A DNA stretch of 64,000 bases from Naegleria gruberi (lineage: Eukaryota), in the NCBI GenBank assembly GCA_000004985.1, contig GG738862.1; one strand, written 5' to 3'. Below are positions 5,378 to 33,100 of the stretch, piece after piece (within the stretch, counting starts at the first letter, position 1; every line of letters starts with the position of its first letter). The position numbers and the translations under genes were made by a program. The notes under the pieces are model-generated. The model worked only from the letters and a program-made list of their open reading frames with translations. It made no database searches and was not told the DNA's origin.

Positions 5378-5539
5378 AAGGCAAACAATAATTTTTCAAT
5401 CTTTGGAAATTCAATTTAATAGTTCTACCACTGAATCGATTATTTGAAAAGTTACTTTGAGGTTTTCTGAATAGGTTTTTGATAATGATTCCTTTTTTTT
5501 CAAATCCAATAGCAACAAAGTATGAATGATTTTTGACTC

Positions 5540-6715
5540 TTATTTGGTTTCTGTTAAATTCCTGTAAGCCCATCTCACAATGGCATTTACAACATTACTA
5601 TCGATTCCTTGTATTTGTTTACATGCATGTTCAATTTTTTCTTCTTTTTCTCCTTTAAAGGATATTAAGGCATCCACAACATTTTCCAAATCATATCCAC
5701 AAACCATTTTTGACTGAAGGTCTTCCTCATTGATCCCAACTCCTACATCATAGTCTATCAAAACCATTCTCATTTGTTCCCTTCTCCACGATTTTGGTTT
5801 GCTTTTATCAAGTTTGAATTCAGAAATTTCTAAAAAACTTGTTGCCCTTTGCAAAGTCCCCTCAACTTTGGTTTGCTCTTCTAGTTGTAATTTCATTAAT
5901 TGTAATTTTGACTCAAGACTTGCAACCCTTATTGATGTGTTGTTTTGGGCACGCTCTTTTCGTTTTCGTTTCGTTTTTGTATATTTAAATTCTTTGCTTG
6001 ATTCAGAAAGACCCTCTGAAGAGGAGGTTAGTGGTTCTGAAAGATAGTCTAGGAGTGCTTCAACATTTGAAGTATATCTTTTAATGGCTTCCCAAGATGA
6101 ATGCCTTGAAATATTGCCCTTACCACCCCAAATTCTTTTATAAAACGAAAGAGGTTTATCATTACAGGAATGGATCTGTTCAATACTTGGTATAGTAATT
6201 ACATCTTCTGTTAATGTGACAGAATTATCCTGTCTGCTTTCTTTGACAATGTTAAATCTGTGATGACCAAAGGTTGCAGGTTCTTTGACACAGAATTCAA
6301 TGGGGTAATCAGCTATCCAGCTATTATACAACAACATTAAAAAGGTTTTAATCTTTCTCCTGCTCCTCGAAAAGCATAATACTTTGATAAACGAAGAGGC
6401 ATCTTGTATTTGAGTTGATGGTGGTGAACAATAAATTCTCGACACCTCACCATAAACATCCGCATGCACAGCTAGTGCTCTAATATATCTCTTAACCTGT
6501 GTTTCCCGAGGAATATGTATAAAAAACGACAAGTGGGTTGGCAATTTATCTATTGCTTCTGTCAATGAAACAAGCGCTTCATTTCCGTTCTCCTCTGTAA
6601 TGGTAACATATTGTTCACTCATTTTCTGTAGTTTTGGATTAATTAGATAAAATGGCGGTAAACTTGTTTGGCATTTTTTTACAAATGAAAGTTTGTTAAG
6701 CTTAAGGTTTTGCAA
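5540..6715 (-). CDS. Hypothetical protein (391 aa), possibly with a UBA/CUE-like C-terminal helix bundle
   Basis: Long intact ORF with an ATG start. Basic KRKRK stretch followed by coiled coil. C-terminal MVCGYDLENVVDALISFKG...VVNAIVRWA looks weakly UBA-like. Confidence 0.45.
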   Translation of the reverse strand: MQNLKLNKLSFVKKCQTSLPPFYLINPKLQKMSEQYVTITEENGNEALVSLTEAIDKLPTHLSFFIHIPRETQVKRYIRALAVHADVYGEVSRIYCSPPSTQIQDASSFIKVLCFSRSRRKIKTFLMLLYNSWIADYPIEFCVKEPATFGHHRFNIVKESRQDNSVTLTEDVITIPSIEQIHSCNDKPLSFYKRIWGGKGNISRHSSWEAIKRYTSNVEALLDYLSEPLTSSSEGLSESSKEFKYTKTKRKRKERAQNNTSIRVASLESKLQLMKLQLEEQTKVEGTLQRATSFLEISEFKLDKSKPKSWRREQMRMVLIDYDVGVGINEEDLQSKMVCGYDLENVVDALISFKGEKEEKIEHACKQIQGIDSNVVNAIVRWAYRNLTETK

Positions 6716-7244
6716 TTCGTAAAATAGAGTTTGGTTAAGGTCTGACTTTTGCTAAATTCACTGCATAATAGCCTATATTTTCAGTAAGGAAATTTACTTT
6801 ATTCTACTCTTCCAAATATTCTATCTTCCCAATCATTAAATAAATTCTCCTTCATCGTAATCACCTAGTCTAGGATGAACCACAAGTGAAAAATCACCAC
6901 AATGATTTCCGTCCACCTGAATTCTCTTTTGAAGTACTTTCCTCACATAAATTGGGGTGATAATTCAAATAATTGGAAACTTTTGATGATCCACCAATTA
7001 CGAAAACGAATGGTAGAGGAGCAATTAATATTTACAGATTGGAGCTCTTAATTCCCCCTTATCAAAAACATGGTGAATTATCCTTCTCTCTGAATGATAC
7101 CATTCAAGTTAATTCTTCATATAATTCAAATTGTTGCTATCATCATTATATTGGTCATAAGGTTCTGGTCTTTTTTTCATCAGCTGAGATTTTGATTAAG
7201 GGGAGATTCCTCAAATCAGCAAACAAATTAAACTCTCAAAAAAA

Positions 7245-10200
7245 ATGCGACCTCTCTTTTCCATTCGCTCTGACATTGTTCGGCACTTTTCTTCTGCTAT
7301 CCGACCTTTCTTTAATTCGGCAGAAAAACTGTTCAGAGAAATAATGAAACCACATTTAACCTTTGAAGAATGCGCAAGTCTGTATGCGAATACGAACACA
7401 AAATCAATGAGTCTTGCAACCCTTATGATTACTTTGTGCTCTAAGCATAAACGGTCCGAAGTGGAAAGAAGGAAATATATTGATGAATTGAAAAATATTA
7501 TTCATCATTTTGATGAAGGCTCTGCCACTATTAGAACCATTGATATTGCCATTTCTACATTAGTGCATGAAGAAGGCTATGATGAAGTTGTAACTCTTGT
7601 TAGAAAACTTGGAAATTCATCACTTGCTTCTCTGAAGAGTTTTAGATTGGATCAAATCTTAAAAGTTCTCTCAAGTTATCCGAATGATTTTGAATTGGAT
7701 ATTGCCAAACATATATTTTCTGTTTTACTTGAAAGAAAACAAGTCAGTTTATACGCCTACAATTACTATGCACAGTGTTTGTTTAAATATAATTTTGAAG
7801 AGGGGATGACATTATTACATGAAATGAATGCTCAAAAAATCAAAATTTTTGATAATCTGTTTATTTCCTCATTGACTTTCTCTTTAAAGAAAAACAAACA
7901 AAAAGAAAGTAGAATGATTTGCTCAATGATTGAACATTCCAAAACTACCAACAAAGTGCTATTAACCACAATGGTGAATTTTTATAACAAATGTGAAGAC
8001 TATGATAAGGCAATTGAAATTACTAGAAACGTTAGCAGTGATGGATTGGATACAACTTCATATAATTGTTTAATTCAATCCTATATTGGAAAAAGTGATT
8101 TAAATAGAGCAATAGAGATGCTTGCTGAAATGCAACAGCAAAATATTTCACCCGACTCGGCCACATTTACAATTATTTTAACTGCTTGTGCTGACAGTAA
8201 GAATTACGAACAAGGGTTGAAAGTACTTTAGTTAGAGAACAAAATCGAGCACATCATCTATGAGATTTGAATCAATGATTAATTTCTATAACAAATGTGA
8301 AAAATATGATAAGGCCATTGAATTATTTGATAGCGTTCCAAAAGATAGAGTAGATACGACATCATATAATTGTGTAATTCAATCCTATATTGGAAAAGGT
8401 GATTTAAATGGAGCAATAGAAATACTTGCTGAAATGCAACATCTAAATATTTTACCTAACTCTACAACATTGCTATTATTTTAACTGCTTGTGCTGACAG
8501 CAAGAATTATGAGCAAGGATTGAGGGTGTTGAATATAGTTGGAGAGAACAAACTTTCAAGTAATCATTAGATAACCTCAATGATTAATTTCTATAACAAA
8601 TGTGAAAAATATGATAAGGCCATTGAATTATTTGATAGCGTTCCAAAAGATAGAGTAGATACGACATTATCACAATTGTGTAATTCAATCCTATATTGGA
8701 AAAGGTGATTTAAATGGAGCAATAGAAATACTTGATGAAATGCAACATCTAAATATTTTACCTAACTCTACAACGATGGCTATTATTTTAACTGCTTGTG
8801 CTGACAGCAAGAATTATGAGCAAGGATTGAGGGCGTTGAATATAGTTGGAGAAAGCAAACTTTCTAGTACTCATTGATGACCTCAATGATTAATTTCTAT
8901 AACAAATGTGAAAAATTTGATAAGGCCATTGAATTATTTGATAGCGTTCCAAAAGATAGAGTAGATACGACATCATATAATTGTGTAATTCAATCCTATA
9001 TTGGAAAAGGTGATTTAAATAGAGCAATAGAAATACTTGATGAAATGCAACATCTAAATATTTTACCTAACTCTACAACGATGACCATTATTTTAACAGC
9101 TTGTGCTGACAGCAAGAATTATGAGCAAGGATTGAGGGTGTTGAATATAGTTGGAGAAAGCAAACTTTCTAGTACTCAGTTGATGACCTCAATGATTAAT
9201 TTCTATAACAAATGTGAAAAATTTGATAAGGCCATTGAATTATTTGATAGCGTTCCAAAAGATAGATTAGATACAAGTTTTCACAACTGTTTAATTCAAT
9301 CCTATATTGGAAAAGGTGATTTGGATAGAGCATTTAGTATTTTTAATCACATGAAGGAATACTGTTCTATTCAACCTATTATCCCTGATACAACTACGTA
9401 TTTGGTGTTATTGACAGGTTGTGCAGACAGAGAATCTCTGAGCAAGGATTGAGGGTGTTGAATATAGTTGGAGAAAGCAAACTTTCTAGTACTCAGTTGA
9501 TGACCTCAATGATTAATTTCTATAACAAATGTGAAAAATTTGATAAGGCCATTGAATTATTTGATAGCGTTCCAAAAGATAGATTAGATACAAGTTTTCA
9601 CAACTGTTTAATTCAATCCTATATTGGAAAAGGTGATTTGGATAGAGCATTTAGTATTTTTAATCACATGAAGGAATACTGTTCTATTCAACCTATTATC
9701 CCTGATACAACTACGTATTTGGTGTTATTGATAGGTTGTGCAGATTTAGTATCTCCAACCAAAGGAAAAACATTAATTAAAGAGATACAAGAAAAACAAC
9801 TAGATAGTTCTGAGATGATCAAATCTGCAATGTTGACATTCTATTCCAAAACTTGCAACCAGAAAAAGACAACCGAAATATTAACAGATATACTAAGCAG
9901 CAACCCCTCCATTATGTCATATAATTGTATTTTAGCAAGTTATGCTCGTCATGGACAGGGTAAAAAAGCTTTGAATTTATTCAAGTCTATGGTTAAAAAC
10001 AGTGTACAACCTAATGGAGATACTATCACAATTATTTTGAATGCCTTGTCACATAGTGGAATGGTTGAAGAGGCCATAAAGATTTACAGCACAATAGAGA
10101 CACTCAAAATAATCCCATCACCATCCCATAAAACAGTAATGGTTGATGTTTTTGCGAGGGCTGGATTATTTAATGAAGCTGAACAGCTCATTGGAGACAG

Positions 10201-10828
10201 TACTGAGGCAATACTATGGCGAACACTCATGGCAGGATGTAGAAAGCATAATAATATAGAGATAGCAGAAAAAATATTCGAAATTTTAACAAAAATAGAA
10301 CCAACCGATCCATCTCCTTACATACTGCTATCAAATATTTACATGTTTAAAGGAAATAATACTAAGGCAAGTGAAATAAGAGGTTTGATGGTACAACAAG
10401 GCATTAAAAAAATTCCTGGAATTGTTTATAGTGAAGATAAAGGTACAACCTATCAATTCATTTCTGGTTCCAGTAATTACCCATTGTTTACAGAAGTGGA
10501 GAATAAGCGAAAAGAGATTTATCAAAAAATTATTGGTGCTGGTTATGTATCAGATACTAGATGGGTTACAAACGCTCAACTAATATCTGAGGAGGAAAAG
10601 ATTGATTCTTTATGCAGACACGCAGAAAAAATAGCAATCTCCCATGCTTTTGTTTTGCAACCAAATAGAAAAAAGATACTTTTAACAAGTAATTTGAGAG
10701 TTTGTAATGACTGTCACAATGCCATAGCTTACATTTCAAAAGAAATGAATGTGGAAATAGTTGTAAGAGATGCAAACAGATATCATCACTTCAAAAATGG
10801 TAAATGTAGCTGCAATGATTATTGGTAA
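7245..10828 (+). CDS. PPR (pentatricopeptide repeat) protein with C-terminal E/DYW deaminase domain. The tandem array is interrupted by stops or frameshifts at three unit junctions; the terminal ORF 9419-10828 is intact.
   Basis: Repeated ~35-aa PPR helices (SYNCVIQSYIGKGDLNRAIEILDEMQ...). C-terminus HAEKIAISHAFVLQPNRKKILLTSNLRVCNDCHNAIAYISKEMNVEIVVRDANRYHHFKNGKCSCNDYW matches the plant DYW consensus HSEKLA...RVCxDCH...RFHHFxxGxCSCxDYW. Confidence 0.85.
7950..9520 (+). repeat. Tandem array of about five near-identical ~300-bp units, each encoding ~3 PPR motifs, inside the PPR-DYW locus
   Basis: Units begin near 7950, 8260, 8570, 8874, 9180 and 9470 (MTSMINFYNKCEKFDKAIELFDSVPKDR...EQGLRVLNIVGESKLSSTQL). 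Lesions sit at the same junction position: TAG at 8230, TAG at ~8565, and a 1-nt deletion at ~8868. Confidence 0.8.
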
Positions 10829-11238
10829 TCTTCTTATTAGTGAGAGATTCTGTTCTATTGAATTTTTCGAAGAGCTTTTGTTTTTTTTTTGTTTATTCAA
10901 TTTCTAACTCAGCAAGTGATCAATCAAAGAATCAATTTCTTGCATCAATTTGTTAGAAAGTTTCATTTTTCTTTCTCCTTTTAAAATCACAATGATAACA
11001 ATACTACAATCGTAAATGCTTTTGTTTCTCTCAAACGAAATGGCAACTGAGAATGGTAGAATAAATCCTTCTGAAACATAATATGCATACACCAACTCCA
11101 ACGACTGAAAACTGATCCATTAATTGAATTGACAAATACTGTTTCTTCGATATTCAATCTATCGAAACAATACAAATCCAAAATCAATGCTCTTCTTCCT
11201 TAATAATCTGTTGCTTCCGCTCTTTTATTTTGTAAGGA

Positions 11239-13549: not shown

Positions 13550-14085
13550 TGTTCAATTTTATGATGATGGAAAAATGTATTTCATTCCGAGAGATATTTC
13601 ATTTGAACTGATAGAAATAAATTGATGGGAGGAGGTGTTGCTGAACAAACCATGTGTCAAATAAGAGAAGAGTCAAGAAGAAGAAATTCTGTCAAGTGAA
13701 CACATGTGTTGTAAACTCATGATGGAACCCACTACGATTTTCTGACATGTCCAAATAATTGTAGTTCAATTACAACAGTATAATGCAATTTACAAAAGTG
13801 AGTGACATACCTACCATTTATCTAATTTGTTGCCAATCATGTCCAAATTTATTCTGTCAATTGTCCAAACCTTACTCAACCACCAATGAGATTGAAGTGT
13901 CATGGACAACGATAGTTCCAGCGTTTGTCCTTGTTCTGCAACATTCTATCCATTACAATATGCAGCTCTGGTGAACTTTCCACTGCGCCATTCTCGTGTC
14001 CATCATCGCTTTCGAATAAAAACTGCAGCAAATCTCACAAAATTTCACAACAAAAAAAAACAAAAACCAATCAATCATAAAAAGA

Positions 14086-14483
14086 TGCCACAACAATTCC
14101 TCATTGTCCTCGAAAAATGTGTCGAACAAGATGACGGCAGCAATGAAATCTGGTCTCAATTCAAGTGCAGCGACTCTGTTTTCGAATATGTTTTTGGAAT
14201 CGAATATCCAACAGGAACCACAGCTGGCGAAAGAATTGCCAGAATTCCAACCAGTGGCGCCAATTTAGATTTGTACGCTGGAATTGAGAGAATTTTCAAT
14301 AAGAATGGACAAGTTGTCTCCAAACTTAAGGGAATCATGACAAATGGTTCTTGGACTTTATTCCAATTGTTGAGTGATAAGGGATTCAAGTTGGCTGAAC
14401 AACGTAATTATGATGTTGTGCAATTTTGTTCAACTCTTAATGGAAGAAAGTTGGTTGAGAGAATTTTTGTTAGAGATTTGTAA
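14086..14483 (+). CDS. Small hypothetical protein (about 132 aa)
   Basis: ATG at 14086 (MPQQFLIVLEK...) inside the longer alt-start ORF 13902-14483. No recognisable domain. Confidence 0.35.
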
Positions 14484-14688
14484 ATCAATGATGCAAAGAA
14501 TAAATAGTTTAGTTTCGAATATTCACTACGAGCCAACGAGCTAAGAAATGTCGTCGAGCTGTGAAATATTTTCGCAATTATTAAAAAATAAAAATGGTGA
14601 GACCTTTCAATACTTTCATTCTCAATTTAGAGACATGAAAAACAAATTTAGTCATTATCCGCCAGTATAAAAGCTAACAAAACAACAT

Positions 14689-15357
14689 GTGCAACAATTA
14701 AACAACAAAACAAATATGACCAGGAACAACAACAATAATAAGAGGAAGAGTAGTGATAGTAGTGGAAAACAGAAGAAGAGGAAGATACAAACTGGGGAAT
14801 TACCATCATCAATACCTTTGGATTCAAGAGATGGAGAAGGAGAAGTGGATTTCATTTTGGAATCAGGAGATTTTGAATATAAACCGGAATATGAGGAGTG
14901 GAATCAAGTACCATCGGAAAAGCAATTAGTTTTTAGTGTTATTTGGGGAGTTTTTGCTAAATGTGCAAGATGTAAAATCAATCAACATTTGGATATGAAT
15001 GCTAGTTGTACAATTAATCATGAAACTCTTGGATCATGTGCACATCAAGTATTTTATTTGATGATGAAGGACTCAAAGGGAGAATTTCGTAGATGGTATC
15101 AGGATGTTTGGTGGAATGGTATTAGAAAAAGAAGCAAATGTATTCAATTTATATTCCGAAATTGTTTACCGAATTTTGATAAATATGATGATTGGGGAAT
15201 GGTATTAATATTGCACACCAACAACACATCTCAATTTGGAACACTCAAATGTAGACAACAAATGAATATTACTAGAATGTCAATAACTTGTAATATTGAA
15301 ACAGGAGAGGTTTGGAGTTCTTTTAGATTCAAGAAGTCAATTGAGAAAGTACGATAA
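14689..15357 (+). CDS. Hypothetical nuclear-type protein with KRK-rich N-terminus (NLS-like) and Cys/His-rich core
   Basis: 222-aa ORF with an ATG start. KRKSSDSSGKQKKRK looks like a bipartite NLS. Confidence 0.4.
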   Translation: MQQLNNKTNMTRNNNNNKRKSSDSSGKQKKRKIQTGELPSSIPLDSRDGEGEVDFILESGDFEYKPEYEEWNQVPSEKQLVFSVIWGVFAKCARCKINQHLDMNASCTINHETLGSCAHQVFYLMMKDSKGEFRRWYQDVWWNGIRKRSKCIQFIFRNCLPNFDKYDDWGMVLILHTNNTSQFGTLKCRQQMNITRMSITCNIETGEVWSSFRFKKSIEKVR

Positions 15358-15389
15358 CAACTTGTCAACCAACAATCAACAAATAAAAT

Positions 15390-17123
15390 ATGTCAGCATC
15401 CTTTAAATCTGACGTTCGTAAAATTGCTTTAACAATACCTCCCGAGTTGAACAATGATTCATTTCCTTCCATCCTACTTTTTTGTGTGTGTCAGCTCATG
15501 CTGAAATGTATTACAATAGAAGTACTCGAAAATATTTTGCTAAGTGCTTTTATTAATATTTATTTACCAATGATGACAAACAATAATGAACGCAACAAAC
15601 CTCTTGGCTGGGAAATTATTGATGATGATGATGTTACATCTCAACATAATTCGGAAGCAAGTATTGACATTGTTTCATTGTTAAGACAAGCAAGTGATGA
15701 AGTACAAAATATTGAACAAAGTGAGGATGTAGAGCATTCCCAACAAACAAGAAAACAATCAACAAGCAAGAAACCAAAAGCACCAAAACAGGTGCCAATT
15801 TTATACACTGATATTTTGGATAATTATACTGATTTTTCGTTTTTAAAATATAAATTAACTGGAGATGCAATTATTGAGGATGGAAGAGTTAATAGAACTA
15901 AGAGCAAATCTAAGCCAGTAGCAATTTGTAATATGGATCATTTCGGATTTTCAAAAAAAGATTTGTTTAGAAAATCTTGTAAACATTTCGTTGAATCTAA
16001 GCCCCATCTAAATTTAATATCAGCTAACAATAATTCTATTAAAAGCATCAAACTATTTAATATTAATGAAATGAAACAGAGTAAGGATATAAAATTTAAA
16101 GATAAAGAAGTTCTAGGAAGATTCTTATTTGGAATTGAATTGGCTGGATTAAATCATGGAATTAATGGATTTGAACATTTTATTCATTTGATTGCATATT
16201 TATTTAAGGATGAATTTATTCATGCCATTGGAACATATGATTACAAGGATAAAATTTTAAAAAAAGTAAAAGAATTACCAATTCAGGAACATTTAGAAAG
16301 TCTTAATGAATATATTGAGATGTATGAAAAAAAAACATTTCCAATAATATCTCCACTGAAATATATTGAAGAAGAGCAACATCAGGATTTGGATAGTGAA
16401 GAAGATCAAAATGAAGAACATGAACATTTTAATGAATTTAATACTGGAGTGGTTTCAACAACAAAGAAACATTCAAAGGAAAAACAACAACCACAAAAAG
16501 AAACAAATATTGAAAATGATGATAATGAATGGCATGATATAGATAGCTCAATGGATGACGATGTTGAAGAGGTAGTTAATATTGTTGAACAATCACGTGT
16601 AGATGTAGTCAATAATGAATCAAGTAAATTTACATTTACTAAAAAAATGGTTAGAGATATTTATGGAAAACAAGAATCCAGAATGTCATGTTTGAATTAT
16701 TCTAAATTTTCCAAAATAACTGAATCAGACAACACCAAAGACTCAGTTTTAAGAAAAGCAACAGCTATTTTGAATATACAAACTCTTTTAAAATTTGGAG
16801 TTCAGGTTGATGAAGAAAATTCAATAGTTGTCGCGAGCATGCTCAAGGTGTTGGAAGAATCAATAAGGTACCACATTAATTGGATTAAGGAAGCCGAAAA
16901 AGATGAAACTTTGAGCAAAAAATTGAAAAAAGAGGATTTGGAAATAGATTTAAAAGTATTTTATTTCAAATTAAATCTAGATGAAGCCTCAGGTACTGTT
17001 ACATTCGCTATTCAATTATTGAATGGAAAATCTCATGGAAATCCCGAATCGAGATTAAATGTGACAACACTAGCTGCCTGGCGTGGAGGCGAAGAGAAAA
17101 TGAGATCGAAAGTAGTAATGTAA
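15390..17123 (+). CDS. Hypothetical acidic protein (577 aa)
   Basis: Long intact ORF with an ATG start. Asp/Glu-rich internal segment. No recognisable domain. Confidence 0.5.
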   Translation: MSASFKSDVRKIALTIPPELNNDSFPSILLFCVCQLMLKCITIEVLENILLSAFINIYLPMMTNNNERNKPLGWEIIDDDDVTSQHNSEASIDIVSLLRQASDEVQNIEQSEDVEHSQQTRKQSTSKKPKAPKQVPILYTDILDNYTDFSFLKYKLTGDAIIEDGRVNRTKSKSKPVAICNMDHFGFSKKDLFRKSCKHFVESKPHLNLISANNNSIKSIKLFNINEMKQSKDIKFKDKEVLGRFLFGIELAGLNHGINGFEHFIHLIAYLFKDEFIHAIGTYDYKDKILKKVKELPIQEHLESLNEYIEMYEKKTFPIISPLKYIEEEQHQDLDSEEDQNEEHEHFNEFNTGVVSTTKKHSKEKQQPQKETNIENDDNEWHDIDSSMDDDVEEVVNIVEQSRVDVVNNESSKFTFTKKMVRDIYGKQESRMSCLNYSKFSKITESDNTKDSVLRKATAILNIQTLLKFGVQVDEENSIVVASMLKVLEESIRYHINWIKEAEKDETLSKKLKKEDLEIDLKVFYFKLNLDEASGTVTFAIQLLNGKSHGNPESRLNVTTLAAWRGGEEKMRSKVVM

Positions 17124-17135
17124 TATTTTAAATTT

Positions 17136-18526
17136 ATGATTGAGGCTACTAGAGCTAACGGAGTAATTGTTGATGGGAAAACATACAAAGTTGACTATTT
17201 AATGACAACTGATTTATTATCCTTGAAAAATATTAGTAGATTAATGTTTAAAAGAATGTGCCCATATTGTTTGAGTCTTTCAACATTATGTGATAGAAGA
17301 CATGTATTGAGAGCAAAAGAAGAACTTTCATGTATTTTATCTATTCCTCCCTCAAAGATAGTAATTTGTTTCCTCCATTTAAGGGAACGAATCATGGAAA
17401 GACTGTTAATAGATTCAATATTGACAATGAGTAGTACGAGAAAATTTTTGAAGACGTTGAAATCAATTAAGAATTTTCAGAACTTTTCATTGCGTCAACT
17501 TAACACCAAAAAAGGAATATTATATAGATGTTACTTGATAGGAAATATGGTTAAATCATTGTTAAAAAGTCTTATTGTTATCAAGAAATTTATCAATCCA
17601 ATGCAATATGAATTGATGACCAAATTTAAACGAGTAGTGGATTTGTTGAACGTAAAGGAACGAATGGATGATGAACAGTATGAAACTTTTATGAAAGCTC
17701 TCAAAGATATGCAACAATCATATTGCAGATTATATGTTAATGGTCCTAAAAGTTGGTACATGCACATATTGTTTCATCATGTTCCAAGTTTATTGAAAAT
17801 GTACGGCTCCTTAAAGCCATTTGAAACTCAGGGTTTTGAAGGTAAGTAATCATTAACTTTAATATTAATTGTAAACAGGAGCTCACATTGACGATAAAGA
17901 TCTATTGGAAAAAACCTCTCATAATGGAGGAAGAAAATCATATTTGCACTTTATGTTTCCAAACTTTAAAGATATAATGTTAATCCAATTTATTTTACCT
18001 AGATTAAGGAAATTGTTAATTTGTAACGAGTATGGTTTTAAATTTGACTGTAGTAAAAGAGATTCTAAATTGGTAAGGCAATTTCTTGATGAGCCCTATC
18101 CTGATATACTTTGTGAATATTCTCATTTATTGGAAAGAAATGATGATCAAATGTGTGATGACGAATGTTGTCAAAATAATTGATTCACATAGAATTATTA
18201 AAGCTCATAGGGATAATCTTGATGTAGGAGTTAGTATATTGTTTTATTTCGGATCGTATCTTGAAAATGAAGGTTATTTGGAGTTAACTGATAAAAATTG
18301 CAAAATATATTGCAGACCTGGAGATGTAGTGATATTTAAAGGAAATATTTATAAACACAAAGTTAATAATATTTCAACAGGATTTAGGATAGGAATTGTT
18401 TATTTCACACATAAGGGAAACAAGTCAAAACCATACTATGAAACAACGCAACGAGCCTCTTTGAAGCAACACAGAGAGTTGTTTCCTAACGAGAAGCCAA
18501 AGAAAAAGAAGAAGACAAATAAATAA
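17136..18526 (+). CDS. TET/JBP-family 2OG-Fe(II) dioxygenase (Naegleria Tet-like 5-methylcytosine oxygenase). Exon 1 is 17136-17841, a 37-nt intron follows at 17842-17878, exon 2 runs to ~18160, then an apparent frameshift leads into the catalytic frame, which ends at 18526.
   Basis: Catalytic-frame sequence IDSHRIIKAHRDNLDVGVSILFYFGSYLENEGYLELTDKNCKIYCRPGDVVIFKGNIYKHKVNNISTGFRIGIVYFTHKGNKSKPYYETT contains the HxD motif (HRD), a distal His (YKH) and an Arg (GFRIG) of the double-stranded beta-helix fold. It strongly resembles the published Naegleria gruberi Tet1 core as I remember it. The intron is GTAAGT...ACAG and splicing keeps the frame. Confidence 0.7.
17842..17878 (+). other. Spliceosomal intron (37 nt) in the Tet-like gene
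   Basis: gtaagtaatcattaactttaatattaattgtaaacag. Splicing joins ...ETQGFEG to AHIDDKDLLEKTSHNGG in frame. Confidence 0.7.
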
Positions 18527-18683
18527 ACGAACTTCATTCCTATCAATGTCAAAAATTTATTTGTTGTTTACATTCTAAAGAGAACATCCCTTCCAAAAAA
18601 AATTTACCTTCTACTTGTATTCTAATGTACAGCTCGACGACCGCTTGGCTCGTAGTGTTGTGTTTTGAAAACTTGATCACAAT

Positions 18684-20606
18684 TTGGATAAAAAAATGTC
18701 ATTAGAGGATGATGGAGAGAAGCAGATTTATTCTGTGTTTAATTTACCGGAAGTGGTTTCTAATGTTTTATTAAATTTATCTGCAAGGGAAAGAGCAAAG
18801 TTTCGTCTCATCAATTCGAATTGTGATCAAGTATACAAAATTGAAGAGGAATTATTATTTATTAAATTATGGACAAGATATAGAGATGGACATTCGTTCG
18901 GATATCAAGAAGAAACACTTTCTAATGAAGAATTGGAGCATTATCAAGAAATTTATGGAAATTTACAATTTCATTTGCGTGTTTGGTTGACTAAATGTTC
19001 AAATGGAAGATATGAGAGGGAAAATTCATTGTTATTGAGTATTTGCAATATTGGCGATTGGAGATTTATTCAAGATTGTCCATTTGTGAATGAAGATTTT
19101 CTTGAAGAATATTTAGATTCGAATTTGGTAAAGAGTTTAGTTTGTGTTCACATGGCGAAAGAAGTTTCGTATTTTATGGACATGAGAAGTGGAATATTCT
19201 ACCAAAATGTTAATATTAAATCTACTTTGAATTGGAAAAGACTTGGAACTATTCAAGAATGGTTAGAAAATATGCCCTTCGATATATTAGGAAAATTATC
19301 AATGACTAATAAGGGAAGAAAAGTTAATTATCTTGCAAAACTTATGAAAGCAATGGAAGGAAATAATATTGAGGCGATTATTTCTTTATTGAAACAGAAT
19401 TTATGTTTATTTCCCTATTTAAAGGATCAATTTAAAAGAAGGGAAGAAATTTTACAATTTTTATTGGAAAATAACGTTTATGGAACATCAATTATTGGTA
19501 TACACAGTTATTTACCTGCATTTATACCGTATGATTTGAGATGTGATCCAGATTTTGTATTGAAATATTGTAAAATTATTGATTTTTATTATTATTTACC
19601 AACTAAATTAAGAAATGATACTGAATTGATCATTAAAATATTGGAAATTCACAAAGATGTCACTATTCATCTCAGTTCAGTACCAAAAGAATTATTTTCT
19701 GATATTAGGGTTTTGAAAATATTAAGAAAACCAATTATGGAAGAATTACAATACAAAGATTTCCCACATTTGGAAATTGACACTATTGAAAAATTAATGA
19801 TATTTGGAGATTGTAATATTCTATATCCATACATATCTGACAAGTTACTCAATGATCAAGATTTTATCAGGAAATTTTTAATTGCTCAATATGGAGAGGA
19901 GTATAATGTAAATCCTACAAATTTGGAATCTGTTAAACATCCATTACAAATGGTGTTTATTGACCAATCATTGAGAAGTAACAAATCAATCATGGAAAAC
20001 CTCTCACAATACCATCTTTTATATTTATGTGGCGACTTGAAAAGAGATTTTGACATTTTATCAAAAATTGAAAAAACAAGTATTCTAAAGAAGGTCAATC
20101 CACTTTTAACATTGGAAGATTATCTTGAAATATTTAGAAAATTCATACAAAGATCTCCAACGAAAACTTTTACATTTTACTATTATATTTCAAATTTACC
20201 AACAAAATTATTCAATTGTAAAGAGGTTGTTCTGACAACAGCAAAATTATACAAAAAGTATCTTGTGGTTTTAAGTAAGATTGGAAGTGAATTATGTAAG
20301 GATGTGCAGTTTTGGAGGGAATTGTTAGAGGAAACTTCGTATGTTGATATTGGAAGTTTCGTCCCACATGAAATTCGAAACGATCCAAAAGTTTTCCTCA
20401 AACAATTGAAATATCCTGAATTGCAAATGTGTTCAAAAGAGTTGTTGGAAAATGTTGAATTTGTGGAGGAGTTTTTGGTTGCCAATAATCATTTCGAATA
20501 CATTTACCTTTCACCTAAAATGAGATCAAATAAGGAATTATTCATGACATTAAGTGAGAAAGATATGGAACTATTTCAATTTGCATCCCCTGATTTATTT
20601 GCCTAA
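18684..20606 (+). CDS. F-box-like / DUF4116-repeat protein (640 aa)
   Basis: N-terminal IYSVFNLPEVVSNVLLNLSARERAKFRLINSNC looks F-box-like. C-terminal repeats LRCDPDFVLKY, LRNDTELIIKIL and IRNDPKVFLKQL resemble DUF4116 units, as in the ORF at 1379. Confidence 0.5.
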   Translation: MDKKMSLEDDGEKQIYSVFNLPEVVSNVLLNLSARERAKFRLINSNCDQVYKIEEELLFIKLWTRYRDGHSFGYQEETLSNEELEHYQEIYGNLQFHLRVWLTKCSNGRYERENSLLLSICNIGDWRFIQDCPFVNEDFLEEYLDSNLVKSLVCVHMAKEVSYFMDMRSGIFYQNVNIKSTLNWKRLGTIQEWLENMPFDILGKLSMTNKGRKVNYLAKLMKAMEGNNIEAIISLLKQNLCLFPYLKDQFKRREEILQFLLENNVYGTSIIGIHSYLPAFIPYDLRCDPDFVLKYCKIIDFYYYLPTKLRNDTELIIKILEIHKDVTIHLSSVPKELFSDIRVLKILRKPIMEELQYKDFPHLEIDTIEKLMIFGDCNILYPYISDKLLNDQDFIRKFLIAQYGEEYNVNPTNLESVKHPLQMVFIDQSLRSNKSIMENLSQYHLLYLCGDLKRDFDILSKIEKTSILKKVNPLLTLEDYLEIFRKFIQRSPTKTFTFYYYISNLPTKLFNCKEVVLTTAKLYKKYLVVLSKIGSELCKDVQFWRELLEETSYVDIGSFVPHEIRNDPKVFLKQLKYPELQMCSKELLENVEFVEEFLVANNHFEYIYLSPKMRSNKELFMTLSEKDMELFQFASPDLFA

Positions 20607-22175: not shown

Positions 22176-24035
22176 ATGTATCAAAGGAAAGCATTGATAA
22201 CTAACCAATCAATCCTTAGTGTCAGTTTGCTGCTAGTTTGTTTACTGGCATTAAGTATTTTGCATGTTCCATCATCTGTTTTGTGTGCTTCCTCAAGTAG
22301 CTCATCAAGTAATGGAACTGTGAGAGAATGGCTCAATGACTTGAATGATCAAGCTGCTAATCTACAATCCTCTGCTTCAAGATTGCAAAAAGCTATTGCA
22401 ATTTTGAGTATGGCCAACAATACAGCATCCATCATCAGCATGAGAAATGCCCAGCTAAAGAAGATTAATTCTGCACTTGACATGATTAATCAAGAAATTT
22501 CAATCTTTAAAATCACCTGCAGTAATAATGATGGTCCTGATTGTAGCATTCCAGTATGTGTATCAAAGTGTTTGAACTGCTCTGGACCTGGAAAGTGTGG
22601 TGTTTGTTCTGGTAATTTTGATGGAAGTGATTGCTCTGCATGTAAATCTGGATGGAGTAATTACAATAGCAATTGTACTGTTCCAATTTGTGATTCTAAA
22701 TGTATTATTTGTCAATCACCTGGAAACTGTACCAATTGCTCTGGTAATTATGATGGTTCTGTATGTTCATCATGCAAATCAGGATGGAATGGTTCTAATT
22801 GTTCAACACCTATTTGTGATTCTAAATGTGTAACTTGTCTCTCACCAGGAAACTGTACTAATTGCTCTGGTAATTGGACTGGATCTGCCTGTTCTATTCC
22901 TGTATGTGATTCCAAATGTTTGAATTGTTCAGCACCTAGTGTTTGTTCTCAATGTTCTGGTAATTGGGTTGGTTTAACTTGTTCAGTATGTCAGACAGGA
23001 TGGACAGGAGCAACTTGTTCAACACCAGTATGTGATTCCAAATGTACAACCTGTGCATCTCCTGGTGTTTGCTCAGTTTGTTCTGGTAATTGGCAAGGAT
23101 CTACATGTTCCACATGTAAGACAGGATGGACAGGAGCAACTTGTTCAACACCAATTTGTGATTCCAAATGTACAACCTGTGCATCTCCTGGTCAGTGTTC
23201 TGTGTGTTCTGCTGGTTGGACAGGAGCAACTTGTTCAACACCAGTTTGTGATTCTAAATGTACAACATGTGCATCTCCTGGTCAGTGTTCTGTGTGTTCT
23301 TCTGGTTGGACAGGAGCAACTTGTTCAACACCAGTTTGTGATTCCAAATGTACAACATGTACATCTCCTGGTGTTTGCTCAGTTTGTTCTGGTAACTGGG
23401 ATGGTCCTTCATGTTCTGTGTGTAAAACTAGTTGGACAGGTTCATCTTGCAATCTCGCTCTTGGTGATTTTGCAAACTCACCATTATTCTCCGCTAGTTA
23501 TGGAGCTAGGTTGATCACATCTATTTTGAGTGGCGTTATGAAGAAAACACCAACCAGACTCTATAGAGCCATGGCAACTTATGGTATGGGAATTGGTTAT
23601 GGCTATCATCCTTACGCTTTCCATAATGCCTGCAATGGTTATTCTTCAACAGTTACAATTGTGAAAACATCAGCAGGGGCTGTATTTGGTGCCTATCTAA
23701 GCATTCCATGGGAAGATTATAATGCTGGGGATACAACAACTCGTAAGACATTTTCAGATCCTAATGCATTTCTATTTAGTATGGTAACATCGAGCGGTGT
23801 GGAGAGATTTGTGAAATTGGGTTATTCTGGAGCTGTTGGACAAACTGTTACATACAATTTTATAACACATCCATTGTTTGGAGCGTCGGATATTTATTTG
23901 GGACAAGGGATGAGCTATCAGCCAGCACCTGATGCTTATTCGAAACCAGCAACTTTTCAACCTTTGGAACCTAACTGGAGTTATGGAACTACATATTCAT
24001 TCACTGTTTCTGATTATGAAGTGTATAGTATTTAA
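22176..24035 (+). CDS. Secreted Cys-rich (EGF/laminin-EGF-like repeat) protein with C-terminal TLDc domain
   Basis: Signal peptide (LLLVCLLALSILHV). At least 10 repeats of CxSKCxxCxSPGxCxxCSGNWxGxxCSxCKxGWxGxxCSTPxCD. The C-terminal region LYRAMATYG...AFHNACNG...VTIVKTSAGAVFGAYLSIPW...AFLFSM...SFTVSDYEVYSI fits the TLDc pattern. Confidence 0.75.
   Translation: MYQRKALITNQSILSVSLLLVCLLALSILHVPSSVLCASSSSSSSNGTVREWLNDLNDQAANLQSSASRLQKAIAILSMANNTASIISMRNAQLKKINSALDMINQEISIFKITCSNNDGPDCSIPVCVSKCLNCSGPGKCGVCSGNFDGSDCSACKSGWSNYNSNCTVPICDSKCIICQSPGNCTNCSGNYDGSVCSSCKSGWNGSNCSTPICDSKCVTCLSPGNCTNCSGNWTGSACSIPVCDSKCLNCSAPSVCSQCSGNWVGLTCSVCQTGWTGATCSTPVCDSKCTTCASPGVCSVCSGNWQGSTCSTCKTGWTGATCSTPICDSKCTTCASPGQCSVCSAGWTGATCSTPVCDSKCTTCASPGQCSVCSSGWTGATCSTPVCDSKCTTCTSPGVCSVCSGNWDGPSCSVCKTSWTGSSCNLALGDFANSPLFSASYGARLITSILSGVMKKTPTRLYRAMATYGMGIGYGYHPYAFHNACNGYSSTVTIVKTSAGAVFGAYLSIPWEDYNAGDTTTRKTFSDPNAFLFSMVTSSGVERFVKLGYSGAVGQTVTYNFITHPLFGASDIYLGQGMSYQPAPDAYSKPATFQPLEPNWSYGTTYSFTVSDYEVYSI
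23030..23400 (+). repeat. Near-identical in-frame 87-nt tandem repeats inside the Cys-rich gene
   Basis: gcaacttgttcaacaccagtttgtgattc(c/t)aaatgtacaac(a/c)tgtgcatctcctggtcagtgttctgtgtgttct repeats about four times, encoding ATCSTPVCDSKCTTCASPGQCSVCS(A/S)GWTG. Confidence 0.8.
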
Positions 24036-27187: not shown

Positions 27188-30100
27188 TTATTTAAAAACA
27201 ATTTTCTGATTGTTAATTAAAACATTGTAAAGATGAGAAAGTTCAAAGAGACACGACTTGTCACGAATGTTAATAATTGTCCTCAAATATTTCACTGCAT
27301 CCCTATTAAATATTCTACACTTGTACAAGAGTGGAAGTCCTTCAAGAGATTCTCTTGAAATAAGTCCAAATTCATCAATAATTGATTGTTGGAATAATTC
27401 CTCTTCCTTAGAGTTTGGTGCATAGGGTTTTGGAGCTATTCCCAAGAATTTACAGAACTCATCTTGTTCTAATTGATTGGCAAAATAGAGAGATCCAGCA
27501 AATATGTGAATGTCAGTCAACAAGTTCAGTAATACCTTGTCAGCAATTTCAAAGTTATTATTTGGTACACTCCATGCTGGTTCATCAATCATGATACGAG
27601 AGGTAGGACTTGTTCGTGAGCAGAACATGAGTATACGAGTTGGTGAAAATTTGTCCAACTTTTGAATATAATGATTAGCCTCTTCTGGACTCAAAATGAT
27701 AATTGTTTGTGAGTATTCACTGTAGGCCAGCCAAGTGACGGGTTTGAAGAATGGACTATTCTTGGAAGCATTCGAAACAGTTTTGAGGTAATTGTCAGTG
27801 GCATAAATGTTGTGATTCCAATTGATTGGAGAGGCCAATAGAGTTTCTTCCAAAGATTCAGATAATGGACGGGCTTTAAGTGGTTGAATGGAGACATCAT
27901 ATTCCTCTTGGAGAATGCCCTTCTTCATGAATAACTCCAAGGTATCGTCAATTACAGTAGCTGCAGGATCACATTTTTGAGGTCTCTCTACAATTCTTTG
28001 CTCTTCCAATTCATTTTCCAATTCTCTTTCCTGTTCCTCGTTGAGTATTTGTGAAAAGATAGTTTTAGAGTGAGCTCTCTTATTAATATTTGCTCTAATT
28101 AATTCCAAAGAAGGAGAAATATCTATGGAAAAGAGTTTTGAAATGTGAAGGGCTCTCTTTTCAAAGATACTGAGAAGGTATTGTTCATATCTTTCCTGTC
28201 CATAAAAATCACTAATTTTGAATAATTCATTTTCAGTGCACTGCTCTGCATATTCATCCATTTTAAGCTTGGCATCATATTCGGTTTTGGCAATTTTTTT
28301 AGAGTAGAAGAGCAATCCACTAGTTGACCATTGTAGATAGTGATCATTTTCCATTTGTACTCTATTGTGAATGGACCATTTCAATATTCTTTCTTGGATT
28401 GTAAGCTGTTGTGAAAAATTGTCATTAATAAAACGATCAACTTCTTGACTTGCCCAGAAGGCAACAGAGTGTCCTTTTCCTAATAATCTCATTCTCATAC
28501 AGGCTTGGCATAGTCTCTCAAATGTAAGACCATTACCCAGTGTTACGGCTGCTTTCATTCCAGTAGGGAATTTGAGATCTGTACCTCTTGTGTGAATATC
28601 ATCAAGATAAATCAAACATCTTTCCAATTTGTTCTTATAGGGAGATATTTCGAATGGAATTATCAAACCATTTCTATCCAAAACAACCAATTGATCTTGG
28701 GTGTTGAAAAATACAGCTGCATCTGCAACTTGTTCAGTCACAGAGTTTAACCAGTATTTGCAAAGATTCATATTACTCATTTCAAGCATGAGCGCTCCCA
28801 CATCAATTAATACTCGTTGGTTATTAGCATTCAATTCAGATATAAAGTTAGTAATCTCTGCTTGTTTGACAACATGATATTCTTCATTCTCTTTAGAGAG
28901 GAGAATTTTCAATAATTCTCCAGTAGTTCCCCTAAGGGAAGGAAGCTCATTTTCCTTAATGGTGATTGGCAAAAGGAATGCCTTCGTTCCAGAGAATCCA
29001 CAAGTAGGGAATTTACTTTCCTTACAAAGATTCCAAGCTGATGCTGAAATCTTTCTATCAAACTGTTTACATTCTCTTGAGAATACAGCTCGATTGAGGA
29101 AAAAGTCAATCACTGCCATGTTATTTCTTAAAGCTGGGTATAAAACTTGTGTCTTTTGAATAAAGTCTTCCAAGTTAATGCTCTTGTAATGTTTGATTGA
29201 TTCGGGAATATTTTTCATTTCATAGACCCATTTCTCATATTCCACATCGGGAGATTCTATTCTTTGAAGGAATTGGAAAACCACATCTAATTGTTCATTA
29301 GTCAATCCAGAATAATAATAACTCAATAATGTTAAAAGAATTGCAATATCTGGATGCCCAAACTCGGCTCTATCAGAAGGGCAATCCTTAGCTCTGTAAG
29401 GAACAGCCACCAATCTCTTGATATTAGGATTGACTCCATAATTAACTCTCCATCTCTTATTGAGCGAGTGATACAATAATCCAAAAGCAAATATACCTCT
29501 CATTAATAAAATTTCCGATTTTAAAATATCATTTGACATGGTAGAAAGAATATCCAACTCAGTTTGTGAAATGGTTTCTGCTGTTAATATCTTCTTAATA
29601 TTTTCTCGGTCGTTCAATTTGTAAGGAATGAAAATTTCACTTGCCCTTCCTTCTAAAATATCATCTACAATTAAATCAACTAATTGATTGTAAGATGTCT
29701 TATCTAAAACTCTAAAATAAGGGAAAGTATGAGAATCTCCTCTAGTAAAGAATTCAACATGTGAAGCGCCAAGTTTGTTGAATAAACTTTCAGCATGCTT
29801 TCTAACAATTCTCATAATTTTTTGAGGTAATATCCATCTCAGATTTCCCATATCCAAATCTTTTTGTTCTCCCACAGTATAAATTAATTGATATCTAACA
29901 TGAAGAATTTCATCACTTTCATCGAGAATATCTCTGCAGTGTTTTTCGAAATAGTCTTGTAATCTCAAATAATCGTGAGCAATTGATTCCTTAGCAATTG
30001 CTTTTTCAATTCCTTTCAATTCAAATGACAATCTATATTCTGGAACAGTGATAAGAATGCTCCTTTCCTTTTCCATTACTTCCAATACACTTCTAATAGT

Positions 30101-33100
30101 CTTTAAATCTGTTGCAGTAATTTTCAAATCTCTGCTAAATGGTAGATAGATTACCTTTCTATTAAGAATTCCACCAAGTTTAAATGAAAGATATGTATAA
30201 TTGGTCTGGAGTAATTGTTTTAGTACAGTCAATCGAGGAATTTGTGCTTCGTTAAATGCAAGGACTAACATTGGAATAATTACCGATGTTTTGCCTTCTC
30301 CCATATTGAATTGGAGAACCATGTTTGTACTTGAGGAAAGCATGTGATTTGCAACTTCATATTGTCTTGGTCTAATCATCAAATCGAGTTCAATTTCCAA
30401 TAATAACCATTGGGGGAACTTTTTAGGGCTCCAATTAACATGTCCACTATTTTCAAGTTCTCTATCAAATTGTACCTTCTTATTTGGATCATTGTTCATA
30501 AGTTTCAATCTGTTGTATCGTTGTTCCAAAGTTGTTAATACAGCAAGAGCTCCAATCAAGTCTTTACAACCACAATACTGTTCAGTATCTGATATCAAAT
30601 CCTGGAATAACAGATATGGGCATAAACGATTTGAAATTCCACATTCTGCTATTGCTGATTTTGCAGTATCGGAAAAATTAGAAAGTTTACATTCCAGAGC
30701 TTTCCAAATTTTTTCTTTCAATTCCAATATGACAGAAATATTAGGCAGTTGTGCTGAGGTTACTTGGTTTGGGTTATTGGCTGTCAAATAACTGCCCTCC
30801 AGGTCTAGAATGTACTCGTTGTAAAGAGGGTCATGAGAGTCATGTGAAAATAATTGAACATCATGCTCCAAGGTTTTGATTACATCCTTCTCACAATATG
30901 GTGATATGTCACCTTTTTCAAAAATGTATTTAGCCATTTCTGGAACATCAGCTAATCCAAAAACAAGCTTATTTCCATCTTCTTGTACCTTGGTAAAATT
31001 CTGAATATCAAATGTTTGATTTGTTTCGTTTGGCTGTAAATTCTCCATTGTAATGTTGACTATTGTTATGTCACCTTTAGCATTATTCATCATATTTTGG
31101 AGAACTGATTTAATACCTTGTAAAAATTTTTGAACTCGTTCTCTATTGTAAAGTGTAGATAAATAGTTATTGATATGATCGACAGCTTCACTCTTATCAA
31201 TAAAATTTAATCTTCCAAATTTGTTTTTCTCCATTAATTGCTCCTTATTGAATGCTATTTCAGCAAACCTTAGGCATGTTCTAATATCATTATTAAACGT
31301 TTCATGGTCATCCTCATCATCAAATGTTAGTCTACTATTTGCCGCTTTCAATAAATTTATAACGTCATCTTCATCAAAATCAGTACATTCCAAATCATCA
31401 ACACTTGAAAAAATTAAAGGTGAATGTTGATTTCTAAAAGAATTGGCAAATAAATTAATAATCATGAAACAAGCCAACATTTTCTTTTTTTCTGGGAATA
31501 CATAACCGAGATAAGATATGAAAACTTTGAAATCGGCAGGTGTTTGAGTTTTGGCTGCTTCATAGAGTGTGAGGAAATCATCTTCGAGGTCAATATTTTT
31601 CCAATCATACAGGAAGTTCTCCACTTTTTTTTCTGGATTGAACGAGGACACTGAATTGATAAGTTCAACTGCTGAAATTTTCTGAAAATTATTTTTTGAA
31701 ATAGATGCCAAGTACTTGCAAGCAACATAGGATGTCATTGAAGAGATCTTGATTGTTTCAACATAATTGACATCTTTTTGAGAACTAATTCTTAAACGTA
31801 CAATAGGATTGTAATAATTAAGGTAGGCTTTGTAATACCTTCTTGCCAAGAAGAGAGGATCTTCCTCGTCACTCTTTTTAACACTACTGCCACTTTCCCC
31901 GTCTAGGAAAATTGTCTCCTCTGACTTTTTAACAATAGAGTCCACAATTAGTTTGTAAGCATCCAAAAGACATAAACTTGATAAATTTGTTTTAGGCCAT
32001 GTTATCTTCTCATTGACTTTCATTTTTGGTGGATGGAAGCTTCTGTCAGGAGAAATAGATGAAATGGCCTCTAGTAGAGAGGTTTCCAATTTTGAGAGAG
32101 GTCTCATTGGCCAACATCTTGCAGATTTCAAAATTTTGAGAGCTGATTCATAACCTGTTAATTTTGTGAATGGATCGACTATTACAGAGCTGGTGATACC
32201 ATGAAGAAGTGCCAAAAAAAGCCAGGACGATAAGCTATCATTAGCTTCTAATTGCCACATGTACTCATTAACAGAATAGGTGAAATAAGGAGTATCTATT
32301 GATTTAGTCATATCGATACGTGTTAAATGGTGATGTTTGAATTTTTCTGTTGAAATTTCACCATTTGGTACAAGCACAATCTTTTTAGAAGAGTTTGGAT
32401 TTTCGTCCTTCAGCATTATGGCATTAGAAAGTCCAATTAATGTACCACAATAAAATGAATCGCAAACTATCATTGAAAACTCCTTTGATCGTAAATAGCT
32501 GTTGTTCACCAATTCAAAGTGAAGTCCCAAACGTGGAAGTTCCACTAACACTTCATCATTATTTGCAAATATATGAATATTATGTTTGAGTTCAATTCTT
32601 GAAATTGATTTCAATACTTCTGTATACGTTTCTCCAAAATAATTCATGAGTACTCTTTCAGTACCAACTTCTTTCAATTTCTTTTCTGTGACATCGAGTT
32701 TGTAAGCAATGCTACTTTTAAATTTTGGAGAAAAGAAAGAAATAGGTCTGAAAAGCACACAATTAGTTGTAACATCATACCAATGACTGTAGTTTTCCAC
32801 AAATTGAGCTGGAAGATCATATTCAAAAATTTTGTGAGACAATAAAATAGATGTTTCAGAGCCATGCTTCAGAATGAATTGCATACTTTTTCTAAACTCC
32901 AGTTGACAGCCGTCAATATCGTACGATGTCACAAAAGCATCTGGACGTGTGGCTTGTTGCACATCAAACACAAAATTACCAAACACTCTCTTATACTTTG
33001 CATCTGCTGTGATAGGATCAGGAAGTCTTCCAATTGGATTTCCATTGACAAGGAATGTTCCTCTAACAATATTGAAGGCAATTGCTGTAAATCCCGAATC

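Follow-up and report, generated by a model that had tools for sequence, protein, structure and literature searches.

How does the catalytic end of a Tet dioxygenase come to follow directly on a long upstream coding sequence, yet one nucleotide out of frame with it? The question is raised by a 64,000-nucleotide stretch of DNA from Naegleria gruberi (contig GG738862.1 of assembly GCA_000004985.1; hereafter the window), in which a first-pass annotation had read positions 17,136 to 18,526 as a TET/JBP-family dioxygenase gene with an N-terminal extension and a frame break. The similarity to Tet is real, but the gene model is wrong: the upstream part is a transposase, Tet residues 1-220 are missing and the break is a junction. 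What had been taken for an extension encodes the catalytic core of a CACTA-type DDE transposase that resembles RAG1 and Transib, and positions 14524-18657 of the window very probably represent one copy, now decayed, of a cut-and-paste DNA transposon in N. gruberi that belongs to the CACTA/EnSpm-Mirage-Chapaev-Transib (CMCT) clade. Between its ends follow, in this order, an accessory gene, a transposase of ~920 codons and the last 115 codons of a Tet-like gene, the + strand carrying all three internal open reading frames (ORFs). The flagged gene is a dead remnant, and its interest sits in its context. The parts of the element are these:

14524..18657, + strand: whole element, CACTA-type (CMC/CMCT clade), decayed; 4,134 bp, bounded by inverted repeats
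14524..14562, + strand: left terminal inverted repeat, CACTACGAGCCAA-CGAGCTAAGAAAT-GTCGTCGAGCTGT, with three CGAGC motifs
14689..15357, + strand: accessory gene, an ORF of 222 aa with its first ATG at 14716; homologues lie beside the transposase in other loci
15390..17120, + strand: N-terminal part of the transposase; first catalytic Asp GAT 16980-82 (FKLNLDEAS); contains NAEGRDRAFT_66508, with P0028 100% identical
17121..17123, + strand: TAA codon in frame, apparently nonsense; an intact Willaertia ORF aligns straight across
17124..17841, + strand: transposase core; second Asp 17211-13, C-x2-C 17259-70, C-x2-H 17367-78, H-x4-H 17763-80, Glu 17838-40
17842..17878, + strand: putative intron of 37 nt, GTAAGT..ACAG, specific to the window copy; homology resumes after its removal
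17879..18183, + strand: C-terminal exon of the transposase, with stop TGA at 18181-83
18103..18181, + strand: zone of the junction between transposase-derived and Tet-derived DNA, probably within 18169-18181
18182..18526, + strand: remnant of a Tet-like dioxygenase, covering NgTet1 residues 221-319, then a Lys-rich tail and TAA; frame +1 relative to the transposase
18629..18657, - strand: right terminal inverted repeat, CACTACGAGCCAA-GCG-GTCGTCGAGCTGT on the - strand, so that the + strand ends in ...CTCGTAGTG-3'

The transposase upstream of Tet

The extension had been estimated at about 150 residues, an estimate that does not hold: after splicing the upstream part amounts to 336 aa, and it shares its frame with the 577-aa ORF 15390..17123, a single TAA separating the latter from ORF 17136..17849. 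An intact ORF of Willaertia (locus L003, 9001..10518) aligns with window 16698-17843 at 41% identity and has an aligned column at the position of the stop; the TAA falls inside aligned sequence also in alignment A1 and in the L1_985 match to 16749-17840. Since homologues align across its column, this TAA reads as a nonsense mutation inside one gene, and an intron excising 17121-23 was rejected, the same homologues crossing the site without a gap. The deposited proteins XP_002678368.1 (NAEGRDRAFT_66508) and XP_002678369.1 (NAEGRDRAFT_66509), encoded on a 502-kb scaffold, are 100% identical to the window ORFs, the second of them falling inside the transposase core from 17256; they are the two halves of one nonsense-mutated transposase, annotated as separate 'predicted proteins'. 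This identity places the window in the N. gruberi NEG-M genome.

The 37-nt GTAAGT intron seen in the first-pass annotation stands. Located at 17842-17878, it joins upon removal the ORF from 17136 to the frame ending at TGA 18181-83, and homology supports this: the Willaertia ORF continues along window 17878-18102 with 42% identity in the frame gained by excising the 37 nt (FEG|AHIDDKDLLEKTSHNGG). The segment would be a genuine intron, or at least one that must go if homology is to be kept. The transposase genes of Willaertia, L001 and L002 are uninterrupted at this site, and the Willaertia protein extends for ~20 residues past the stop of the window copy.

When 1.84 billion proteins were searched exhaustively with ORF 17136..17849 by HMMER, 27 relatives emerged, including sequences of Willaertia magna and N. 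fowleri, a second protein of N. gruberi and metagenomic sequences, each of 800-1000 aa. Common to them is a series of motifs that runs from KLxxD, with the first Asp, through LAIWxGxE, (S/T)DLxxL, with the second Asp, and CP(Y/F)C to ICxLHxxERIxE and WYxHIxxxH...GSLxxFxxQGFExxH. Alignment A1 has the second Asp, the Glu and the motif residues between them in invariant or almost invariant columns; conservation of the first Asp is seen in core alignment A5, which comprises four sequences. The catalytic motifs by which CMCT transposases are recognised (PMC12730594), namely D, D, C-x2-C, H-x4-H and E, are all found at the window coordinates given above. The CPYC...C..RH cluster, previously assigned to a Tet extension, belongs to this DDE transposase core.

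Comparison of profiles and folds leads in the same direction. The family profile matches RAG1 chains with E 3.5e-6 and amphioxus RAG1L with E 6e-4, best at the region of RAG1 residues H937, H942 and E962, and one family member matches Pfam RAG1. For the relative P0010, not the window copy, an AlphaFold2 (AF2) model was examined with Foldseek (predicted local distance difference test, pLDDT, 81; predicted TM-score, pTM, 0.81): its top 45 matches are all RAG1, HzTransib or RAGL, with E 2e-10 to 2e-5 over ~520 columns, and the next fold is that of Hermes, with E 3e-3. RAG1, Transib and ProtoRAG RAG1L, the best matches of the family by profile (3.5e-6) and by fold (2e-10), have the same order of D, D, the Zn-ligand-like C-x2-C and H-x4-H, and E. 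Membership of the KDZ family was rejected, there being no Pfam KDZ match and RAG1 matches instead, and a Tet_JBP domain is present in none of the transposase relatives scanned. These proteins form an uncharacterised RAG1/Transib-like transposase family of Heterolobosea and metagenomes for which there is no Pfam model. Two of its members, P0015 and P0025, end in a protease domain of the Ulp1 type (Peptidase_C48), which is known from other transposon proteins too; the second N. gruberi member, NAEGRDRAFT_82344, is divergent and lies on a 7.6-kb scaffold.

The Tet remnant and its junction

The residues that had suggested a dioxygenase, HRD (as HxD), the distal His in YKH and the Arg in GFRIG, are all present in ORF 18086..18526, and the resemblance to the catalytic core of NgTet1 is confirmed by direct alignment. 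With NgTet1 as the query, in a form identical to the sequence of PDB 4lt5_A, tblastn aligns residues 221-319 with window 18182-18478 free of gaps and with 65 of 99 residues identical (66%, E 2e-41); phmmer matches the frame 18086..18526 to PDB 4lt5_A/5cg8_A with E 3-4e-42. The ligands of Fe(II) and 2-oxoglutarate (2OG) align in this gap-free stretch: the triad has its equivalents at 18206-08 (H229), 18212-14 (D231) and 18356-58 (H279), and the 2OG Arg at 18386-88 (R289). The failure to align that the first-pass annotation had named as its refutation did not occur. The remnant therefore shares with NgTet1 (PDB 4LT5, 5CG8/9), an enzyme of the same species, the Fe ligands, Arg289 and residues of base contact and pocket, since it keeps R224, H229, D231, D234, H279, R289, V293, F295 and H297 in NgTet1 numbering, of which R224, D234, F295, H297 and V293 stack on, bond or line the pocket for the flipped 5-methylcytosine (5mC) (PMC4678852). 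Pfam Tet_JBP (PF12851) gives a score of 16.1 bits, below the cut-off of 34.9, over profile positions 89-164 of 164 (the last 76); despite this sub-threshold score, we consider the pairwise similarity to NgTet1 decisive for the part that it covers.

The claim that all hallmarks of the double-stranded beta-helix are in place goes too far. The structured core of NgTet1 spans residues 57-321 and comprises an eight-stranded and a four-stranded sheet with five helices (PMC4678852); only the last ~100 of its ~265 residues are present here. Residues 1-220 are unmatched in every frame of the 64-kb window by tblastn with NgTet1 and with two further full-length Tet homologues, P0033 and P0032, and the YPSTAFN motif, found ahead of residue 221 in every full-length homologue, is absent upstream of 18182 in the three frames checked. 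The remnant is thus without N147, A212, most helices and several strands of NgTet1; in a rough AF2 model of the latter (4-sequence alignment, pLDDT 56), of use for the count of elements only, 4 helices and 4 strands precede residue 221, and the remnant would miss four of the five helices and about a third of the strands. It further differs from NgTet1 in having no start codon in context, in being out of frame with the upstream ORF and in a Lys-rich tail of 13 residues that NgTet1 lacks. The Tet part, judged by its sequence, is to be seen as 5'-truncated and not as a complete gene.

Decay of the remnant is slight: 35 of the 39 columns that are identical across the three full-length homologues are retained, so that it would have been under selection until recently, its truncation being apparently recent. 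Its frame is open from 18086 and contains ATGs at 18140, 18143 and 18158, yet none of the proteins starting there is present in the protein collection searched; the Tet remnant is an unannotated pseudogene. Searching an alignment of NgTet1 plus the fragment matched NgTet1 and two metagenomic homologues only, and the fragment alone as query gave no match, both being word-indexed searches whose index limit means that they are not evidence of absence.

At the junction, the last detectable transposase homology is at 18102 and Tet homology runs from 18179-18182, with a weaker C-terminal transposase resemblance (pattern D.L..L...N...C..C) that may reach ~18170. The transposase frame stops at TGA 18181-83, a codon made of bases in the Tet codons ATT GAT, and the first Tet-homologous codon is at 18182, one base after the start of this TGA. 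The frame obtained by intron removal and the Tet frame are offset by +1, just as the first-pass annotation had noticed when stating that no intron explains the shift. Among the 28 GT..AG candidates for a bridging intron that we enumerated, none has good splice sites while keeping the homologous DSHR residues, and an intron as the cause of the frame shift was rejected for weak splice sites or loss of homologous residues. Neither a 3' untranslated region nor an element end would fit at the junction, nor would Tet codons 1-220. We read the frame break as the probable trace of a deletion or fusion that joined two neighbouring coding sequences; repairing a 1-nt indel would not recreate a dioxygenase, and no such enzyme would be made from a locus in which Tet is out of frame and its first ~220 codons are gone. 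In its present state the locus is a defective, CACTA-ended, RAG1-like DNA transposon with a shortened Tet sequence that is predicted to be untranslatable.

Element ends, partner gene and related loci

The ends of the element were found when the DNA to the left of the accessory ORF was aligned locally with the reverse complement of the DNA to the right of the Tet stop, which gave a GC-rich match; the window is AT-rich, with ~33% GC. Both of the 13-mers that compose the repeats (CACTACGAGCCAA and GTCGTCGAGCTGT) have exactly two exact copies in the 64 kb, one on each strand, and their order is the same at both ends. With up to one mismatch allowed, the expectation for GTCGTCGAGCTGT was 0.01 matches, and 0 of 100 shuffles gave 2. 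In a scan of CACT/AGTG pairs the pair of the element ranks first, with 13/14, and CGAGC occurs three times in the left end and twice in the right end, against a background of 0.47 per kb. The termini, 5'-CACTA...TAGTG-3', bear the hallmark of CACTA elements and, with it, the 5'-CA...TG-3' ends of the CMCT clade. The Tet stop codon lies 103 nt from the right repeat and 131 nt from the last base of the element; Tet coding sequence is therefore found between the element ends together with the transposase, as in Tet-carrying (TET+) transposons, but the full-length Tet ORF that also characterises these is not found in the window copy, where Tet is shortened.

With plant En/Spm (CACTA) elements the window shares 5'-CACTAC... 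termini, short repeated motifs in the ends and the presence of more than one gene. The inverted repeat of maize En/Spm, CACTACAAGAAAA, belongs to this comparison. Unlike plant En/Spm, the window has no detectable similarity to Pfam Transposase_21 or DUF4218, no 3-bp target duplication is seen and the accessory protein is unrelated to anything known. As for Transib/RAG elements, these were reportedly defined by Kapitonov and Jurka in 2005 through heptamer-like termini (CACAATG/CACAGTG) and a 5-bp target duplication. The window instead has CACTACG termini, 5-bp flanks that differ and hence no such duplication, so that we do not place it in Transib/RAG proper; moreover, TM-scores with RAG1/Transib are ~0.5, and in place of the RAG2-like partner of RAG1/ProtoRAG there is a protein of ~230 aa without relatives.

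This partner recurs with the transposase in N. fowleri, W. magna and three metagenomic contigs. Its homologues lie directly upstream of the transposase and on the same strand in L001, a 6.4-kb metagenomic contig (JGI 3300002220), L002, L003 (Willaertia) and L004 (N. fowleri VFQX01000068.1), with blastp/tblastn E values of 2e-12 to 8e-49; L006 differs in that its match is weaker (E 3e-7) and is found on the opposite strand, downstream of the transposase. The coordinates of the pair are:

Window: transposase 15390-18183
L001: transposase 2465-5422(-), partner 5537-6262(-)
L002: transposase 905-3847, partner 200-889
L003: transposase 9001-10518, partner 6517-7332
L004: transposase 8473-11104, partner 6118-6756 and 7798-8436
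L006: transposase ~9560-11206

The partner proteins are of ~210-240 aa and have conserved Cys, Trp and Phe positions; no relative was found in Pfam or PDB. By position, the accessory protein is a second transposon protein, which might be likened to the DNA-binding TnpA of En/Spm by way of analogy only. In L004, four genes of 212 aa are called within 11 kb (6118-6756, 7798-8436, 15494-16132 and 16923-17561), the first two matching the partner gene by tblastn and the other two, of the same length, having no match; the transposase of this locus is split into gene models of 450 aa and 367 aa. A distant relative of the transposase, P0018 (1070 aa), is encoded in L007 (1925-5137), where a histone-fold gene (PF00125; 1528-1914) takes the upstream place of the usual partner.

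One of the related loci contains Tet as well. L001 encodes P0033, a full-length Tet homologue of 328 aa that is 49% identical to NgTet1 and has all catalytic motifs, 1.3 kb from an intact transposase of 985 aa and its partner gene; Tet and transposase are convergent, and only ~130 nt of flank are left at either end of the contig. Adjacency as immediate as this in two of the seven loci is far above expectation for two rare gene families, and the arrangement in L001 suggests that Tet-carrying transposons exist outside fungi. Alignment scans with Tet (A3) and transposase (A5) confirmed no loci in metagenomes and viral contigs. NgTet1 itself (XP_002667965.1, P0029) is on a scaffold of 1,110 bp and P0032 on a contig of 1.3 kb, as would be expected for genes embedded in repeats, even if this is no proof.

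The element is flanked by host-like genes. To its left, an ORF of 193 aa (13902-14483), whose stop precedes the start of the left inverted repeat by 41 nt, has no Pfam match and no relative in the other loci and is presumably a host gene. Proteins with DUF4116 repeats are encoded at 1379-2398(-) and 18684-20606(+), the second adjoining the right end of the transposon; one more (L004 12469-13314) is close to the transposase of N. fowleri, which is probably coincidental for an expanded family. Pentatricopeptide repeat (PPR) proteins are found at 7245-8231 and 8874-10828, one of them with E motif and DYW deaminase domain like plant-type RNA-editing factors; PPR-DYW proteins are a known peculiarity of Naegleria. 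Further along the window, 22176-24035 encodes Cys-rich EGF-like repeats followed by a TLDc domain, with alternating direct DNA repeats of 126 nt and 90 nt at 22539-23449; a second TLDc protein lies at 50316-51536, and a single ORF of 3,075 aa with DUF6606, DUF3638 and DUF3645 at 27188-36415(-).

Origin and meaning of the Tet sequence

From where, then, did the element obtain the end of a Tet gene? Most likely, the remnant descends from a full-length Tet cargo gene that the element carried. The ancestor would have had a complete Tet gene downstream of the transposase, and a single internal deletion, of the kind by which autonomous DNA transposons become defective, would have taken away the transposase end, the spacer and Tet codons 1-220. 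If fungal Tet-carrying transposons are a guide, an intact Tet cargo would oxidise the 5mC of the element and counteract its silencing by methylation.

Such fungal TET+ transposons are known and include the CMCT-clade EnSpm, ESTA and Plavaka, with RAG1 similarity, in a survey that covered fungal genomes only (Kojima 2025, PMC12730594). Like these CMCT families and the KDZ elements of basidiomycetes, the window has Tet/JBP sequence between the inverted ends of a DNA transposon; it also shares with fungal TET+ elements the C(2)C and H(3-4)H motifs of the transposase, the similarity to RAG1 and the 5'-CA..TG-3' termini. It differs in its heterolobosean host, in a Tet that is of NgTet type and shortened, and in a transposase and an accessory protein that match no Pfam family.

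Several observations weigh against descent from such a cargo gene or against the transposon itself. The full-length cargo ancestor is a probable one and no more, for CACTA-type elements can pick up fragments of host genes, as plant CACTA and Pack-MULE elements do. Tet lies near the pair of accessory gene and transposase in only two of the seven loci, and its orientation differs between them, being on the same strand as the transposase in the window and convergent in L001. No inverted ends above shuffle controls were found in L001-L006, which makes the L001 Tet a candidate cargo at most. At the target site, the TT/TT flanks would be a possible 2-bp duplication but are likely a chance match in AT-rich DNA, and the flanks differ at 3 bp (ATT vs TTG) as they do at 5 bp. 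The TAA, the splice and the frame junction are read from the assembly alone; a single copy is visible, tblastn detecting no second one in the 64-kb window, and mobility is deduced from structure only.

Much of this evidence would also suit an element that took up the 3' piece of a host Tet paralogue and never carried a working Tet, the adjacency in L001 being unrelated or coincidental: the window holds only a fragment, in an orientation unlike that of L001, five other loci of the family have no Tet, and around the L001 Tet no inverted ends were found. Such a capture is improbable nonetheless. The fragment reaches exactly the natural C-terminus and stop, and it starts 0-80 nt from the slightly shortened 3' end of the transposase, which fits a single internal deletion between adjacent genes; a second, independent adjacency of Tet and transposase within 1.3 kb is unlikely by chance, given the rarity of the transposase family among sequenced proteins (27 relatives in 1.84 billion).

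Two other explanations are far less probable than capture. The transposon might have inserted beside or into a resident Tet gene, the Tet piece being host DNA outside the element, and the want of a clean target-site duplication would agree with this. We regard such a chance neighbourhood as highly improbable: the right repeat lies downstream of the Tet stop, which puts the remnant inside the repeats, the transposase stop (18183) and the Tet start (18182) are too close for a transposon end to fit between them, and the 5' two-thirds of Tet are neither across the element nor elsewhere in the 64 kb. Alternatively, splicing or a programmed frameshift might yield a functional transposase with a Tet-derived module, or else ATG 18140 might start a mini-protein of 128 aa. 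Besides the open Tet frame with its three ATGs and the slight decay of the remnant, this explanation can invoke some GT..AG pairs that bridge the frames, e.g. 18030-18192 and 18053-18137. It is very unlikely indeed, for the transposase already contains the premature TAA, the candidate introns would either rely on weak splice sites or cost homologous residues, the three ATG-start proteins are not in the protein collection and, without N147, A212, most helices and the N-terminal strands (PMC4678852), an active double-stranded beta-helix fold is not expected.

Lastly, the single Tet/JBP gene with a novel N-terminal extension, broken by a sequencing error or 1-nt indel near 18150-18165, is hardly credible and stands refuted as a gene model by the transposase homology and the missing Tet residues 1-220, for even if its Tet segment is intact and well conserved and the upstream ORF abuts it on the same strand, homology to RAG1-like transposases covers that upstream part from end to end, its scanned relatives have no Tet_JBP domain, and joining the frames would only append one third of a Tet domain to a transposase.

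Having preferred descent from a Tet cargo gene for this element, we may ask what it would mean for Naegleria. Tentatively, and with less than even confidence, we propose that Tets of the Naegleria type are, or recently were, cargo of heterolobosean CACTA-ended, RAG1-like transposons, which would be the first Tet-carrying transposons outside fungi. Our literature search retrieved no report tying Naegleria or its Tet genes to CACTA, Transib or Tet transposons, although an earlier mention is possible. NgTet1 serves as a structural and biotechnological model for Tet enzymes. If true, the proposal would explain the family of Tet paralogues in N. gruberi, the unplaced 1.1-kb scaffold of NgTet1 and the lack of genome-wide 5-hydroxymethylcytosine (5hmC): each Tet would locally counter the silencing of its own element and would not be an epigenetic regulator of the host. 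N. gruberi methylates repeats and transposons, and genome-wide 5hmC was not detected (PMC12344493), a combination compatible with a local, element-centred role of Tet. The capture of Tet by transposons, if this holds, would have arisen also in Discoba, very far from fungi. Independently of Tet, a RAG1/Transib-like family with CACTA termini and a partner gene bears on the deep history of the RAG1/Transib/CACTA group.

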